A DNA stretch of 64,000 bases, taken from positions 361 to 64,360 of the forward strand of contig JAFZEI010000028.1 of the NCBI GenBank assembly GCA_017560765.1, in the 5' to 3' direction. The stretch comes from Clostridia bacterium (GTDB lineage: Bacteria; Bacillota; Clostridia; UBA1212; UBA1255). Of the stretch, positions 1,593 to 8,628 are shown in pieces (within the stretch, counting starts at the first letter, position 1; the number at the start of each line of letters is the position of its first letter). A program made the translations under genes and the position numbers. The notes beneath the pieces are model-generated. The model was not told the DNA's origin, made no database searches, and saw only the letters and a program-made list of their open reading frames with translations.

Positions 1593-1781
1593 TTATTTGC
1601 CTTTGTTATCGTCAGAAAGTTGCTTGTATATCTGATTAGAAAAAATACTCACCGCTGCAACCAAAACGCCTTGTGTAACCGACGTAAATATCGCAATCAA
1701 AACTTCTTTAAAACCGGATATGTCAGACGAAGCAAATACCCATAAAGCTGACAAAATTATTCCGATTGTTCCAAGTATCAA
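1593..1781 (-). CDS. Small hydrophobic membrane protein (62 aa) immediately downstream of sigma-fusion gene A.
   Basis: Two predicted transmembrane helices. It sits 21 nt after the stop of the 540-aa sigma-fusion gene and before the terminator hairpin. Coding status is uncertain. Confidence 0.3.
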   Translation of the reverse strand: MILGTIGIILSALWVFASSDISGFKEVLIAIFTSVTQGVLVAAVSIFSNQIYKQLSDDNKGK

Positions 1782-1802: not shown

Positions 1803-3425
1803 TCAATTTATAAAAAGAGCCATTCCAAGCGAAGATTTACTGGGATCGTCGGGCAGTTTTAAATAACCTTCTTCAACCAGATCATGAATGGCCATCATAC
1901 GCATTGCATATAATTCCATACCAATATAAAATTCCATATTTTTATGCAATACCTGATGAGTGTATTTTTTTAATATAGTCTCCACCTTTTTATACAAATC
2001 CGTCACATTTTGAACAAGCCACTGTATGTCATCCGGTAAAATATCTGGGGGTTCTCCCTCCTTTGCGCGTACTACGACAATATCAGGAATTAAATATCCG
2101 TCTTCGGACAAATGAGCATACCTGCCATTTATCGATTCCCAAACTCTTTTTTCATTATCGCTTAATGAAGATATTTTTTTGTTTTCTTTTATACAGCTGC
2201 ACATTAATTCGACTTCTTGGCTGTTTGGCTCTCCGCATTGCTCCCACATAGAATAATCTCCGCATTTGTATACATTAAAAGCACCACTATCAGTGATATA
2301 ACCATTACATCCCATTATGGTTATTTCCGGAAGTTCCACCGTTTCATAACCAACAAATCCCCAAGATTCTCCATTAGCCCTTTTAGGCAACTTACCGTCA
2401 AAACCTCCGTATAATCCATTAGGATTCTGTTCTTGTTGCACCATGTTGATCAACACATCAATAGCAAACGGAACCAAAAGCCAACGAATAGTGTTATCTT
2501 CTATATGAGGATATTCACAAAAAGCCGAACGATCTTCATTCAATCTGTTTTCTATAAGTTCACGTATCAAGCGGCTTCTTTCTTTTGATTCTTGACGCAG
2601 AGCGTTATAGATTTCCATACGACATTCTTTATCTAATATGAAGAAATTAGTTATATATTTATCTCCTTGCTTTTCAAGAAGCGTAGCTTGATGGAGTAGG
2701 TTCACTTCTTCCTCCATATACGGAAGTGCCACACCAAGTTCAATGGATAATTCTTCAAGTGTAGAAGGGTTATTGTTTGCTTGTAATAAAATATTATTTG
2801 GTATTTTTCTATTTACCGCTCTCCAAGGCAGACCTGTAGGTTGAGCTCCGTCTGCCGCATATGTTATATTTTCAGGGTTATAACTGCGTTTTCCAAATGT
2901 TCTTGCCATTTCCATACCTTCTTTCAAAATGTTTCTTGCGCGAAAAAGTCTCTGTTTTACCGCGCTTTCCGTAAGTGAAAGTGCTGATGCAATGTCACGA
3001 ATACTTTTATTTTCTATATAATAAGTAACGACAATATTTCGGTAATCGCTCTTGATGAATGCCAGCTCACGCCTGAGCAAAGCCATCTGCTCTGAATGTA
3101 TTAATTCATCAGAAATGCTTTCGTTAGCGTCCTCAATTTCATAATCATATACATCTTTATCGGTTACTGATTCATTTCGATTATGTTTTTCTTTTGCCCA
3201 TACAGAATAACGATTACGTGCGATTTGCCATATCCATGCAGAAAAATCATTCGGTATTGTACCTTTGTTTAATGCCATAATAATTTGAAACGCAATATCC
3301 TGTGTCAAATCATCTGCGTCATTTGGGTTACCCGTCTTTTTCAAACAAAAGTAAAATATCTTTTCTGCATAGTTTTCGCTAAATTCGTTGATAAGCTTAT
3401 CTTTTATTTCGTTCGATTCTTGCAT
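1803..3425 (-). CDS. ECF-type sigma-70 factor (regions 2 and 4) fused to an uncharacterised ~350-aa C-terminal domain. Referred to here as sigma-fusion A.
   Basis: The N-terminal ~180 aa carry sigma2 (DADDLTQDIAF...WIWQIARNRY) and sigma4 (IRDIASALSLTESAVKQRLFRAR). This is followed by a YNPENITY linker, a second HTH-like segment (TLEELSIELGVALPYMEEEV) and a long Cys/Trp-containing domain. There are no transmembrane segments. Confidence 0.6.
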   Translation of the reverse strand: MQESNEIKDKLINEFSENYAEKIFYFCLKKTGNPNDADDLTQDIAFQIIMALNKGTIPNDFSAWIWQIARNRYSVWAKEKHNRNESVTDKDVYDYEIEDANESISDELIHSEQMALLRRELAFIKSDYRNIVVTYYIENKSIRDIASALSLTESAVKQRLFRARNILKEGMEMARTFGKRSYNPENITYAADGAQPTGLPWRAVNRKIPNNILLQANNNPSTLEELSIELGVALPYMEEEVNLLHQATLLEKQGDKYITNFFILDKECRMEIYNALRQESKERSRLIRELIENRLNEDRSAFCEYPHIEDNTIRWLLVPFAIDVLINMVQQEQNPNGLYGGFDGKLPKRANGESWGFVGYETVELPEITIMGCNGYITDSGAFNVYKCGDYSMWEQCGEPNSQEVELMCSCIKENKKISSLSDNEKRVWESINGRYAHLSEDGYLIPDIVVVRAKEGEPPDILPDDIQWLVQNVTDLYKKVETILKKYTHQVLHKNMEFYIGMELYAMRMMAIHDLVEEGYLKLPDDPSKSSLGMALFIN

Positions 3426-3589
3426 CTTTGCTCTCCTTTCATTTTAATAGTGTGGCATTTTTCAAATTGGTTACATTGATTTATAAAAAATTTTTTTATT
3501 TATTATTCTTCATGATAATATTATTGCGGTTCGGCCTTGAAATAAAATTTTCATTATTTTAGCACAAAAACAAGAAACCATCTACAAAA

Positions 3590-3632
3590 ACCGCCGAGAG
3601 TTACAATGACAGTTACTCTCGGCGGTTTTGTT
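3590..3632 (-). terminator. Bidirectional rho-independent terminator after sigma-fusion gene B.
   Basis: ccgccgagagt-loop-actctcggcgg with flanking A and T runs. Confidence 0.6.
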
Positions 3633-3633
3633 A

Positions 3634-6600
3634 TTATTGTTTATCAATCATATTTTTAGCTCGTTCGATATATTCCTTGAAACAGTCCTCGTTTCGGACA
3701 GAGTCGAACCATTCCCAGCCATAAGGTGCGGTCAGACCGTAATACATAAGGCTGCAAGTTTCATTAAACAGATGTTCATAAGATATAGGTTCTATCGTGT
3801 CATCGGGAAGTTTTATTAAACTCTTTCCTTTAATCACTTTTATATCACCGTAAATCAGCGGATCACCTACATCCATTTCCGTACCATTGGGGATGCTATC
3901 CCATTTAGTATAAATTTCAAATGCTTTTTCAAGCAACTCATAACCTTCCTCTTTTTTACCGCATCCAAAAAGAGCACACGCAGTACGGAAACTTGTGCTT
4001 GCGTAAAGTCCTAGCCAAGCATTCGGCACTTCACCATCTCCGAGACTTTCCATCATTTTCAAACGATACTTATTCCAAGCAACTGCTTTTCCTTGTGCTG
4101 CCCAATTTCTTGACGGACGTCCAAAAAAATGACAAAGAATATGAAAATTGTTGGCATCATGACGAAGGCGGCTTTCTTCGTGTTTTCCTTGATCCCATAA
4201 ACGTTCTTCGACGATTTCTGCTTGGATTTGACTATATTGAGTAATAGGCGGCGGAAGCTTACGAACACCTGTAAGGTCAGAAAATACAACGATATCTCCG
4301 TCTTCATCTGCTACGAATGCATATTCAGCAGCACCGACAAAGCCATCAGTTAAATCAATTGCATCATAACGGCGCACAAGTCCATCCTTCACAGGCATAT
4401 AACCCTCGCCTGTTCCCTCGTAAGAGGTCAGCTCATAAACTGCTGTTTTAGCGCCACCACAGTATTCATTTTCGGTACGAACAATACCGATTTTATAAGC
4501 AAAATAGTAAACTTTCTTGCCGCCGCGGTACGACCAACCGTCATTCATTCCGTCAATATCAAGACAAAGCTTGAAGCAATTATCAAACGTACCCGCCTTA
4601 GTGGTAACAGTGCCGCCATTCTCACATGTAATTTTCGTTTTGAAAGTTCTATCCCATTTTGTATACTCAACAATGGGATATGCACCTATGCGCCACTCGT
4701 CAGACCAAATGCAATTTGTCGCATCTTGTAAAATCCCAAATATATCATTATATAGAATTGGTTTTTCAGCTGCACCCATACCGCCTGCACATTTCCACTC
4801 AAAAGACCAACGAGAATTATATTCTGTGAGAAATAAAGAATTTGATTTCTTTTGGATATATTCCCTACAGAAGAAATTCCAATGTCCCGTGGTGGTATAA
4901 TCGGGATTAAAAGTGGTATCGGCAGACAATATTCTTCGCGCTACCGACGCCGCGGCTTTTGTATGAGCCTTTTCCATTGGTGTCACAGAAAGTTGTTCGG
5001 CGCGTTCTATGGCGGAATACACGTCACATATATACGACCTGCCGTTAGCTTCGTTATGGCAAACATAGTCATTGGCTATTTTTTGCACCATATCAAGCCA
5101 AGAGTTATTATCATAATCAATTCTCTGAGTATTTCCCCAATATGAAAAAATAATATGTTCATTATCAGCATATGAAACATCAATCCTCAGTTCAGACAAA
5201 ACAGTATCGGGAGCATACATAGCATCGTATTCCCAAGTATTTCCGGAGAACACGGGAAGAAATCCACTGCCACCTTTTATTTCATATTTGCTGAGAAGGT
5301 GCGTAACTGTCGTTCCATCTGTGATATGATCTTGACGAACTATACCAACACCGTCTTTATAATAAGTTCTGCATACGATTTTTTGTACATCCGTCCAACG
5401 CCTGACTTCCCAAAGCTGACATTTTTCATATCTGCCCGAAGGAGTATCTACCAATTCATTGTCCGAAATGTAAGTAAGTTTCGTGCCATCAGAACCTACG
5501 TAGGTTTCTCCCTGAGAAACCTCTGCAAAGAAAAAGCCGTCACAACTTGAGGCATTACGCAGTATATGTGGGCTCTTGCTATCTATAGAGCCGAGAAAAC
5601 CTTGGCAAAAACCATTCTCTGTCCAATAGCGTGGTTTACCGTTTATAATACGGATTTCTTCGGCACCTGCGCTTATCAGATAGCGTTCTTTTACTGTTTC
5701 TTTATATCGTGTTTGCAAAACGTCTTCCATTTTGCGAGCCCAAGGCACAAGCACACGATAAATATCATCTTTTGCAAGAATTTCTTCTGCTTTGTCATAT
5801 GCCGCTAGCCCCTCCTCTGCTCTGCCTTCTCTAAACAAAAAATATCCGAGCCAATACCACTCGCGTCCGAGAGACTTAACAAATCCTGCTTTTTCAAGAC
5901 GCGGTATCTGCTTGTCACGAATAAAGTCAATGCGCGCCCCACCGTATACCTTTGAATCCTCTCGGTCAACAATAAAACACATTACTTCTTCATTCTTGCC
6001 CTCCATAGCAGCATTTGCAATTCTAGCAAACAGAGCATCATTCTTTTCGCCCGGAAGCCACCACCATCCTCGCATCAGCACATCAGCAATAGCGTGTTGC
6101 TTTTCAGTACATTCGGGAAGTTCCTCTACTTCGCGAAGCACCTTCGTGTACACCTTTTCAAAACCACATTTATCATTCTTGACTTGCCATAATTTCAGCT
6201 CTTCAACCTTCTTCATAACACGCTGTACAAGAGTATCATTATACTTCTCATTCATAGCACAAAGTTCCTTTCTGATTCGTTTTCTGCCGTCATGAAGTTG
6301 CCACTTGACTGTCCCTTCGGAAATTCTCATACGGTCTGCTATTTCCGCAATAGAAAGCTCTTCAAAATAGTGCAGATGTATAATCTGCCTTACTTTTTGC
6401 GGTAGCATCCCAACAATTTTGTCAACCTCATTTCGTTCTTCGGAAAGTGCATACAACTCTTCGGGATTCTTTGCTCTGTAGTCGGAAATACTGAGATTAT
6501 CCACCACATCAAGCGGAAGGAAACTGCGATATCTGCTTATCATATTTATTGCGCAGTTTTGAGCAATACGGCATACCCAGGAAGCGTACTTTTTCGTATC

Positions 6601-6801
6601 CTGCAGAGTATTTAGTTTCATCCAAGCTGTAACAAAAGCATCCTGAGCGGCATCCTCTGCCATAAAATGATTTTTAGTTATTTTCATTGCAGCGGATATC
6701 ACCATATTCTGATAACGAGTTACCAAAATCTCGTATGCATTTTGTTCGCCTGCAAGTGTGAGCATTACCAGCGTTTCGTCCGTTTCATTTTTATAGTACA
6801 T
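3634..6801 (-). CDS. Giant (~1055 aa) ECF-type sigma-70 factor fused to a ~870-aa cytoplasmic C-terminal extension. Referred to here as sigma-fusion B.
   Basis: sigma2 (YEILVTRYQNMV...ASWVCRIAQN) and sigma4 (LSIAEIADRMRISEGTVKWQLHDGRKRIRK) occupy the first ~200 aa. The remainder has TPR-like helical stretches (GREWYWLGYFLFREGRAEEGLAAYDKAEEI; LLEKAFEIYTKW) and two Gly/Thr/Tyr-rich beta-type modules. The likely start is the ATG after the AAGGAG ribosome-binding site (MYYKNETDE); the ORF track extends it to 6867. Confidence 0.55.
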   Translation of the reverse strand: MYYKNETDETLVMLTLAGEQNAYEILVTRYQNMVISAAMKITKNHFMAEDAAQDAFVTAWMKLNTLQDTKKYASWVCRIAQNCAINMISRYRSFLPLDVVDNLSISDYRAKNPEELYALSEERNEVDKIVGMLPQKVRQIIHLHYFEELSIAEIADRMRISEGTVKWQLHDGRKRIRKELCAMNEKYNDTLVQRVMKKVEELKLWQVKNDKCGFEKVYTKVLREVEELPECTEKQHAIADVLMRGWWWLPGEKNDALFARIANAAMEGKNEEVMCFIVDREDSKVYGGARIDFIRDKQIPRLEKAGFVKSLGREWYWLGYFLFREGRAEEGLAAYDKAEEILAKDDIYRVLVPWARKMEDVLQTRYKETVKERYLISAGAEEIRIINGKPRYWTENGFCQGFLGSIDSKSPHILRNASSCDGFFFAEVSQGETYVGSDGTKLTYISDNELVDTPSGRYEKCQLWEVRRWTDVQKIVCRTYYKDGVGIVRQDHITDGTTVTHLLSKYEIKGGSGFLPVFSGNTWEYDAMYAPDTVLSELRIDVSYADNEHIIFSYWGNTQRIDYDNNSWLDMVQKIANDYVCHNEANGRSYICDVYSAIERAEQLSVTPMEKAHTKAAASVARRILSADTTFNPDYTTTGHWNFFCREYIQKKSNSLFLTEYNSRWSFEWKCAGGMGAAEKPILYNDIFGILQDATNCIWSDEWRIGAYPIVEYTKWDRTFKTKITCENGGTVTTKAGTFDNCFKLCLDIDGMNDGWSYRGGKKVYYFAYKIGIVRTENEYCGGAKTAVYELTSYEGTGEGYMPVKDGLVRRYDAIDLTDGFVGAAEYAFVADEDGDIVVFSDLTGVRKLPPPITQYSQIQAEIVEERLWDQGKHEESRLRHDANNFHILCHFFGRPSRNWAAQGKAVAWNKYRLKMMESLGDGEVPNAWLGLYASTSFRTACALFGCGKKEEGYELLEKAFEIYTKWDSIPNGTEMDVGDPLIYGDIKVIKGKSLIKLPDDTIEPISYEHLFNETCSLMYYGLTAPYGWEWFDSVRNEDCFKEYIERAKNMIDKQ

Positions 6802-6900
6802 ATGCATCTCCTTCTTTTTATAAAATCGGAAATTTCCAATTTTTAAGCGCTTGTTTATTAGACACAAAGCACTATGAAAAGGTTGGGTGAAGTAAAAATA

Positions 6901-8547
6901 TTAATTTTGAACAATAAGTGTTGTAAGTGATTTTTTCTGTTCTTCGGTAGGAGGTTTTATCTTGCCGTTGTTAAGAAGTGTTACAATACAGTGTAGTACG
7001 AACAATCCATCAGAATGAAATACATACTGCAATTCAAATGCTTGAACTTTTCTGAGGTGTGCAGGTACAGAGTTTAGCACAGCTTCAACATAAGGAGCTT
7101 TCAGTGTATTGAAATCTTTCAAGTACTTTGCCTTTATGCGTTCACCGATAGCAAGTAGTTTATCTTGAATCTCTTTGTTTGCTAAAATGACAATCTGCCA
7201 CACGGACTCGAACTGTTCATCATATTTTCCGTTAGTTTTAACGTATCCGCGTTCTGCCAGCCACGCATATTCATCTTTTGAAAGGCGCTCCCCAAGCAAT
7301 TCTCTGTCGTACAGCGACAGAATGCGTTTTGCTTCGTCTGAATATATAAGCTTATTGCTATTTTTGTGGTCAGACCACTCACTGTCTATCTGCCAAAAGA
7401 TATGCTTATTATCACCATTCCACATAGGGCCGCACCAATTTCTCATATGAACGTAGTCGTCGGGAAGTATAATTTCCGTAGGCGCTACGGATGTGTTGTA
7501 AATATTATGTGCGCCGTCGGGACGAATTGTAGCAACTTCTTCAAACGAAATACTCTCGTCAATAAGACTCTTGCCTGAGCAAGCAGCGATATAAGGAATC
7601 AGCGACCACAGTACAAAATTACGGTCTGTATGTCCGCACAAAATATCAGTATCATCAAGAATACCTGATAATGTTAATTCATCATAAAGTTCGTTTGCAA
7701 ATAAATCAGTAACACGCTTATACATACTATTCTGTATAGTAAACAGTTCTACTGTTGGCTCGCTAATTATGAAGTTTACAATGTATTTATCATTTTGTGC
7801 CTGTAAAAAGCCGTATTCTTCAAGAACTTCTACTTCTGATTCAATGTACACGGGCGAAACGCCAAGGTCATCGGCAATCTCATTAATACCCTTTGCTTCG
7901 TCACGCACACAATAGCATATATTTTGAGCCAATGCAGAACGTAAAAACTCGTCCGGGGATTTTGTCCCGACAGAACCTGCAACGCTGTAAGAGCTGAATT
8001 TAATAGGATTAAATTTAAGTTCACTTGTTTTTCTCATAGTTTTCATACCTCTTTTCAATTCTTTTTTTGATTCAAACAAGTGCCACTTTACAGTGCCGAG
8101 GGGAATATTTAATTCTTTTGCAATATCGGATTGCTTACGGTTTTCAAAATAATACGCAATTACAATTCTGCGTTGAAGTTTTGAAAGATAAGCTATTTCG
8201 CTTTGCAAACGAATAATAGAATCAGCATCGTCGTCTTCATACGGAAAAGTGTCGGGAGCAACCGCAATTTCCGTCACATCATCAATTGGCACACCGATAA
8301 CAGCTTTGGAAGTGTCACGGTAATAATTGCTGAGAGCATTGTGGGCAATAGTCCAAATAAATTTACCAACATCACCAATGTCATCTTTAATTAACAGAGC
8401 GCGGTAAGCCTTTAGCACTATTTCCTGCGATAGATCCTCTGCATCTTCTGCATTTTTGCACCTTTTAAGAGCGAATCCAAATATAGGTTTTAAATATTCT
8501 GTTATAAATTTTTCAGCATCTTGTCTGTTCACTTGTTTGTACCTCAT
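6901..8547 (-). CDS. ECF-type sigma-70 factor fused to a ~360-aa C-terminal domain; a paralogue of sigma-fusion A. Referred to here as sigma-fusion C.
   Basis: sigma2 (EDAEDLSQEIVLKAY...FIWTIAHN) and sigma4 (QSDIAKELNIPLGTVKWHLFESKKELKRG) are present. It has the same linker (LKFNPIKF), second HTH-like segment (INEIADDLGVSPVYIESEVEVL) and DKYIVNFII motif as A (DKYITNFFI). Confidence 0.6.
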   Translation of the reverse strand: MRYKQVNRQDAEKFITEYLKPIFGFALKRCKNAEDAEDLSQEIVLKAYRALLIKDDIGDVGKFIWTIAHNALSNYYRDTSKAVIGVPIDDVTEIAVAPDTFPYEDDDADSIIRLQSEIAYLSKLQRRIVIAYYFENRKQSDIAKELNIPLGTVKWHLFESKKELKRGMKTMRKTSELKFNPIKFSSYSVAGSVGTKSPDEFLRSALAQNICYCVRDEAKGINEIADDLGVSPVYIESEVEVLEEYGFLQAQNDKYIVNFIISEPTVELFTIQNSMYKRVTDLFANELYDELTLSGILDDTDILCGHTDRNFVLWSLIPYIAACSGKSLIDESISFEEVATIRPDGAHNIYNTSVAPTEIILPDDYVHMRNWCGPMWNGDNKHIFWQIDSEWSDHKNSNKLIYSDEAKRILSLYDRELLGERLSKDEYAWLAERGYVKTNGKYDEQFESVWQIVILANKEIQDKLLAIGERIKAKYLKDFNTLKAPYVEAVLNSVPAHLRKVQAFELQYVFHSDGLFVLHCIVTLLNNGKIKPPTEEQKKSLTTLIVQN

Positions 8548-8628
8548 TGAAAGCTTTCACCTATATAGACACAGCTTTTGAAAAAGGTTGGAAAAATTTT
8601 TATAGTGAAACAATCTTTAAACTTCCAA

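Follow-up and report, generated by a model that had tools for sequence, protein, structure and literature searches.

In a 64 kb stretch of DNA from an uncultured gut Clostridia bacterium (hereafter the window), we have found three consecutive genes, A, B and C, whose products are sigma factors of the ECF type, each with a large soluble extension. We consider that the three probably work as one-component ECF sigma factors, independent of one another and each positively autoregulated, with extensions of new types. They are not one-offs, each belonging to a widespread family of hundreds to thousands of clusters. ECF sigma factors that bear fused extensions and are controlled with no anti-sigma factor have already been established as a class (PMC7826278, PMC8999054). 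Our finding does not reveal a system of a new kind, and the grouping of A, B and C is without special meaning.

Sigma factor identity and gene calls

The three proteins alike scored Sigma70_r2, Sigma70_r4_2 and TIGR02937 (ECF) in Pfam and NCBIfam (Table 1), as a previous sequence-only reading of this DNA had claimed for their N-termini. For Sigma70_r2 each of them passed the gathering threshold of Pfam and showed AEDxxQD/E, the motif usual in region 2.2, and Sigma70_r3 or r1 had no Pfam match in A, B or C. In the structure search the sigma modules matched ECF sigma2 and sigma4, and the linkers between these are short, ca. 20–30 residues, with low pLDDT in the models (residues 84–106 in A and 105–123 in B). 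This is the domain content of group 4 (ECF) sigma factors, i.e., sigma2 and sigma4, no sigma3 or sigma1, and a short linker.

Some corrections to the gene starts were needed. Judged from the position of the RBS and the N-termini of homologues, the GTG at 8532 is the most likely start of C (the mechanical ATG at 8547 gives 548 aa) and the ATG at 6798 that of B, rather than the TTG at 6867, with the ATG at 6804 as an alternative. The long fusions described before (ca. 1055 aa for B and 548 aa for C) are real, with starts that most likely give 1054 and 543 aa. The maximal Kyte-Doolittle mean over 19-residue windows never exceeded 1.45 in A, B or C, so that a transmembrane helix is not indicated in any of them, in agreement with the soluble extensions proposed before.

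The claim that no anti-sigma, zf-HC2 or RskA gene is found nearby was also confirmed. None was detected among the ORFs flanking the trio, which are unrelated (DUF4430, PNPOx-like, Phd/YefM antitoxin, weak MBL-fold, AsnC, aminotransferase and others), and A, B and C are the only sigma-like ORFs of the window. We rejected as a mini anti-sigma a 62-aa ORF of two helices located just after A (1593..1781), since it is too small to hold an anti-sigma domain and its start falls inside an indel of 65 bp that a conspecific strain is without. The intergenic regions contained no known RNA elements (Rfam), the matches of the window being the tRNA and a cobalamin riboswitch elsewhere.

The intrinsic terminator attributed to B was recovered, a hairpin at 3584–3631 (z = −9.0) followed by a run of U. 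No terminator was found between C and B, so read-through from C to B is possible despite the promoter-like box of B. We infer separate transcription of the three genes, as previously claimed; the conserved promoter-like box in front of each gene is in its favor and the missing C/B terminator is not.

Table 1. Features of the A-B-C locus, with nucleotide positions in the window and residue positions in the proteins.
Feature	Position (nt)	Strand	Residues and remarks
Gene A	1803..3425	minus	ECF-type sigma factor, 540 aa, soluble extension of 365 aa
A sigma domains			Sigma70_r2 17–72, Sigma70_r4_2 125–165 (Pfam); TIGR02937 74 bits
A winged helix-turn-helix	2649..2801	minus	ca. 209–259, directly after sigma4
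A C-terminal region, helical and alpha/beta	1806..2630	minus	ca. 266–540
A-family promoter-like box	3447..3475	minus	TGTAACC-N12-GCCACACTAT
Intrinsic terminator after B	3584..3632	minus	hairpin −28.3 kcal/mol, z −8.96, then UUUUU
Gene B	3634..6798	minus	ECF-type sigma factor, 1054 aa, soluble extension of ca. 870 aa
B sigma domains			Sigma70_r2 27–93, Sigma70_r4_2 125–177 (Pfam); TIGR02937 89 bits
B TPR-like helical repeats	5713..6237	minus	ca. 190–364, after sigma4
B first beta-rich domain	5122..5682	minus	ca. 375–561; model strands with pLDDT ca. 90–97; no Pfam match
B second beta-rich domain	4258..4872	minus	ca. 645–849; model strands; partly DUF3108_like
B C-terminal helical domain	3640..4233	minus	ca. 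858–1055; model; no Pfam match
B-family promoter-like box	6860..6886	minus	CCAACCTTTT-N11-GTGTCT
Gene C	6901..8532	minus	ECF-type sigma factor, 543 aa
C sigma domains			Sigma70_r2 15–80, Sigma70_r4_2 113–164 (Pfam)
C winged helix-turn-helix	7783..7935	minus	ca. 205–255; aligns with the winged helix of A
C-family promoter-like box	8567..8591	minus	CCAACCTTTT-N9-GTGTCT

Two architectures of the extensions

The extensions are almost entirely outside Pfam, where their matches were limited to sub-threshold TPR and a partial DUF3108_like. Specifically, SnoaL, zf-HC2, RskA and WD40 domains were absent from A, B and C in the Pfam search, and no characterised fused anti-sigma or regulatory domain matched any of the three extensions. 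Most of each extension is also without a counterpart among the PDB matches listed.

In B the segment with the most invariant residues (181–283) falls largely in the TPR-like repeats. The second beta-rich domain is marginally DUF3108-like; PF21347 scored 30.2 bits at residues 729–779 with the whole protein (gathering threshold 27) and 25.6 bits with the segment alone. Searching the extension of B against PDB by sequence gave no match at E ≤ 1. The model of B had a pLDDT of 77.5 and a pTM of 0.61, the AlphaFold model of A a pLDDT of 80 and a pTM of 0.71, and in both the linkers after sigma4 were below a pLDDT of 50.

C is a paralogue of A, with 29% identity over residues 14–320 (E = 4e-35). Their extensions have a common layout, in which a winged helix is followed by helices and these by an alpha/beta domain. 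The winged helix of C gave weak matches to the winged-helix regions of HTH_Cmi2_C, HTH_PafC and CasR, and PADLOC detected in C weak winged-helix noise only. For residues ca. 266–540 of A there was no Pfam match and no structural match among the PDB matches listed, which likewise contained no counterpart of the alpha/beta domain of A and C. TPRs were found in neither A nor C (models and fold matches).

Comparison with described ECF groups

Size by itself does not set these proteins outside the described groups, as had been claimed, because long fused ECFs are already known; for example, ECF57 bears WD40-like repeats and ECF52/53 span the membrane (PMC8999054). A fusion to a transmembrane anti-sigma factor, with membrane and extracytoplasmic domains, has been proposed for the ECF48/52/53 groups (PMC8999054), whereas A, B and C are without a transmembrane segment, zf-HC2 or WD40. 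We rejected the ECF48/52/53 type since no zf-HC2 or RskA follows sigma4 and no hydrophobic window exceeds the value given above.

ECF42, exemplified by Sven_0747 of Streptomyces venezuelae and ECF-10 of Pseudomonas putida, resembles B in having TPR-type helices straight after the ECF core, no anti-sigma and an extension thought to control activity. However, the ECF42 extension is ca. 200 aa of TPR only, while in B two beta domains and another helical domain are added to the repeats, and ECF42 has a conserved YCII-domain neighbor. The assignment of the three proteins to ECF42 was rejected because the extension of B is too large, A and C have no TPR and no conserved YCII neighbor was seen (B loci within 4 kb, and the neighbors in the window). 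The best-studied members of ECF42 are from Streptomyces and Pseudomonas, not from Clostridia (PMC8999054). ECF41, ECF56 and ECF294-295 (SigJ, SigG1) follow a similar one-component logic, a soluble C-terminal domain on an ECF core modulating activity by contacting the core or the linker. This domain is SnoaL-like; with no SnoaL_2-like domain found by Pfam, an ECF41/ECF56 assignment was rejected too.

ECF262 is an extension-bearing group with an exemplar from Ruminococcus albus, SFB89493.1, and no assigned mechanism (PMC8999054, Table 2). Judged by its group name and exemplar, it contains ECFs of a Clostridia species with an uncharacterised regulatory extension, and among the described groups it would be the likeliest home for the A/C-type or related proteins.

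RRNPP receptors (Rap, NprR, PlcR, AimR) have an XRE HTH or a phosphatase domain and a TPR sensor domain for an imported peptide, the gene of which is adjacent. B bears instead a sigma module and had no conserved neighbor of at least 70 aa, and its TPR likeness to these receptors is generic.

Conservation and genomic context

The A family comprises 435 homologous protein clusters, nearly all of them fusions of ca. 535 aa; the B family at least 637 of ca. 1054 aa; and the C family 2065 (368 in a set of 1.84 billion proteins clustered at 50% identity), with full-length relatives of ca. 520–570 aa whose extension begins near residue 165–190. The 120 protein clusters closest to B were 60–80% identical to it, and B-type genes appeared in at least 454 species genomes, all of uncultured gut Clostridia. 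The fused architecture was retained in almost all clusters of the three families, which the database already labels 'sigma-70 family RNA polymerase sigma factor', and conservation of the extension equalled that of the sigma part (mean column identity 71–85%). One relative, known from a single 4.3-kb contig, has an XRE HTH where the sigma domain would be, joined to an A-type extension. This is what would be expected of a portable regulatory module, and gives some support to a sensor or regulatory role of the extensions, which is plausible.

The tandem trio had been taken as a unit, an idea that we discard since B is usually alone, has no conserved neighbors, and C has decayed in the conspecific strain. 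Searched by tblastn with the three extensions, some 74 of the 80 B-type genome loci lacked any A- or C-like gene up to 10 kb away. Adjacency was limited to L014, L032, L054 and L056, and in L001 and L029 the genes were 7 kb apart. When the ORFs of at least 70 aa within 4 kb were clustered, no family was present in more than 10 of the 80 B loci, and the neighborhoods of the A family all differ. The conspecific strain (97–99% nucleotide identity) has kept B and A, with only remnants of C.

Promoter-like boxes upstream of each family

Each gene is preceded by a promoter-like box conserved across its family: CCAACC...GTGTCTA directly upstream of B and C types, and AACCAAAT...CACACTAT of A types. 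The A box (consensus GyAACCAAAT-N-GCCACACTAT, also aligned as tGyAaCCAAAT-N-tGCCACACTAT) was kept upstream of A homologues at five further sequence-distinct loci with unrelated neighbors (L163–L174) as well as in the conspecific strain (L167), and all 24 matches of its pattern in 2.09 Mb of related loci were upstream of A-like genes (two overlap at one site). The consensus was CCCAACCTTTTc.ttctgaTttGTGTCTaaaAGACaAGCGCTtAAaAA for B (60 unique upstream regions of homologues) and ttCCAACCTTTTcagattc.CGTGTCTATATgggTGAAAGCTTTCAA for C (54 unique regions), both of the shared form CCAACCTTTT-N-GTGTCTA just upstream of their own gene. The pattern CAACCTTT-N8-14-GTGTC had two matches in the 64 kb (0.01 expected), fronting B and C, and the 143 matches of the B/C type in the 2.09 Mb were essentially only before the matching sigma family. 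A fourth kind of sigma fusion (locus L143) has upstream GAACCTTTT-N11-CCGTCTATAT. In many homologues a housekeeping-type promoter is also found upstream.

Spacing is characteristic of each family, 15 nt in B and 13 nt in C. The textbook distance between −35 and −10 is 16–17 nt, and the 13–15 nt from CAACC to GTGTC fall below it, a point against our reading, unless the −10 is read as GTCT or TCTA. The recognition helix of sigma4 reads GTVKWxL in B and C, which have CCAACC in common, and SAVKQRL in A, with its other box; sigma4 thus tracks the −35 box.

The boxes were not enriched outside the self-promoters, and other target promoters were found neither in the window nor in the 2.09 Mb of related loci, with strict and relaxed box patterns. 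The presence of a conserved box before the own gene of each family points to autoregulation of A, B and C, which is the rule for ECFs (PMC7826278).

Proposed mechanism and alternatives

In the mechanism that we favor, the sigma2-linker-sigma4 module would bring the core of RNA polymerase to a promoter of the ECF type (−35 containing AAC, −10 containing GTC or CAC) read by the cognate sigma, and the best-conserved copy of this promoter would be the one fronting each sigma gene itself. The cytoplasmic extension would replace a separate anti-sigma, gating the sigma module via a small ligand or a partner protein, through the TPR-like repeats and two beta domains in B and the winged helix and new alpha/beta domain in A and C. 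Basal expression, partly from the housekeeping-type promoter, would maintain a pool of sensor-sigma; the protein would become active upon a signal, and the self-promoter would then amplify it. The loci of the homologues, with no conserved partner genes, are in line with this one-component reading.

The extensions could instead be protein-interaction scaffolds, either needed for sigma activity or tethering the sigma factor to some other machine, with control exerted by an unlinked partner protein or by proteolysis of the extension. There is a precedent in ECF42, whose extension has been proposed as needed for sigma activity. Nevertheless, we regard this as unlikely, given that no conserved neighbor gene could encode the partner and that our impression of the two beta domains, and of the alpha/beta domain in A and C, is of ligand-binding folds rather than scaffolds.

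Less probable still is a different, shared sigma factor or regulator as the reader of the boxes; B and C would then be co-regulated in a cascade and not autoregulated. The −35 and −10 of B and C are nearly identical although their sigma domains share only 25% identity, and the boxes are closely followed by palindromes (AAGCGCTT and GGGAAnTCCC in B, TGAAAGCTTTCA in C) that resemble operators for a dimeric regulator. However, in the 2.09 Mb the boxes appear only before the sigma fusions themselves, the type of box follows the sigma family and its sigma4 recognition helix, and the rule of ECF autoregulation cited above also goes against a shared reader.

We give very little credit to the sigma-like module being the plain DNA-binding domain of a one-component transcription factor, with the box as operator and no recruitment of core. 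The relative in which an XRE HTH replaces the sigma module over the same extension would fit, and the additional winged helix modelled in A and C might bind DNA. Sigma70_r2, though, carries the determinants of core binding and −10 melting, and it is found in all three proteins with the scores and motif described above; besides, the boxes are bipartite and asymmetric, and positioned like −35 and −10 before short leaders.

Finally, the horizontally acquired regulatory island proposed before is hardly credible: a tRNA-Glu gene lies 250 nt from A, a toxin-antitoxin pair adjoins C, and integrase, recombinase-associated (DUF4368) and small XRE genes are found near some homologues, but the GC content equals that of the flanks, neither integrase nor repeats were seen at this locus, the surrounding housekeeping genes are collinear in the conspecific strain with the decay of C as the sole difference, the homologues occupy many different chromosomal contexts, and a mobile-element origin was rejected for want of matches in plasmid records (B and C extensions) and near-absence of them in phage records (none for the B extension, one weak partial match for that of A).

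Implications for gut Clostridia

Among sigma factors, ECFs that carry a fused regulatory domain are the counterpart of 'one-component systems'. The types of fused extension studied so far are, to our knowledge, few (SnoaL, TPR and Cys-rich), and the A/C and B types add two further architectures. It is conceivable, although we hold it to be improbable, that the B type represents an unrecognised class of cytoplasmic receptor sigma factors of gut Clostridia, in which a TPR and double beta-domain module senses a metabolite or peptide and licenses the ECF core, and the A/C type a second class, with a new sensor fold of winged helix and alpha/beta domain that serves sigma and XRE outputs interchangeably. 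If so, B-type proteins would be receptors of an RRNPP-like or one-component sort with a sigma factor as their base in place of an HTH.

The conservation of these proteins, their sharp self-promoter box and the lack of a partner gene make them easy to test in heterologous hosts, and they might serve as orthogonal single-gene switches. The three families abound in the guts of animals and humans, among uncultured Oscillospirales-type Clostridia, microbes whose signal transduction is, as far as we know, essentially unstudied. If the extensions are ligand sensors, they would provide a lead to the signals that are important to these gut bacteria.

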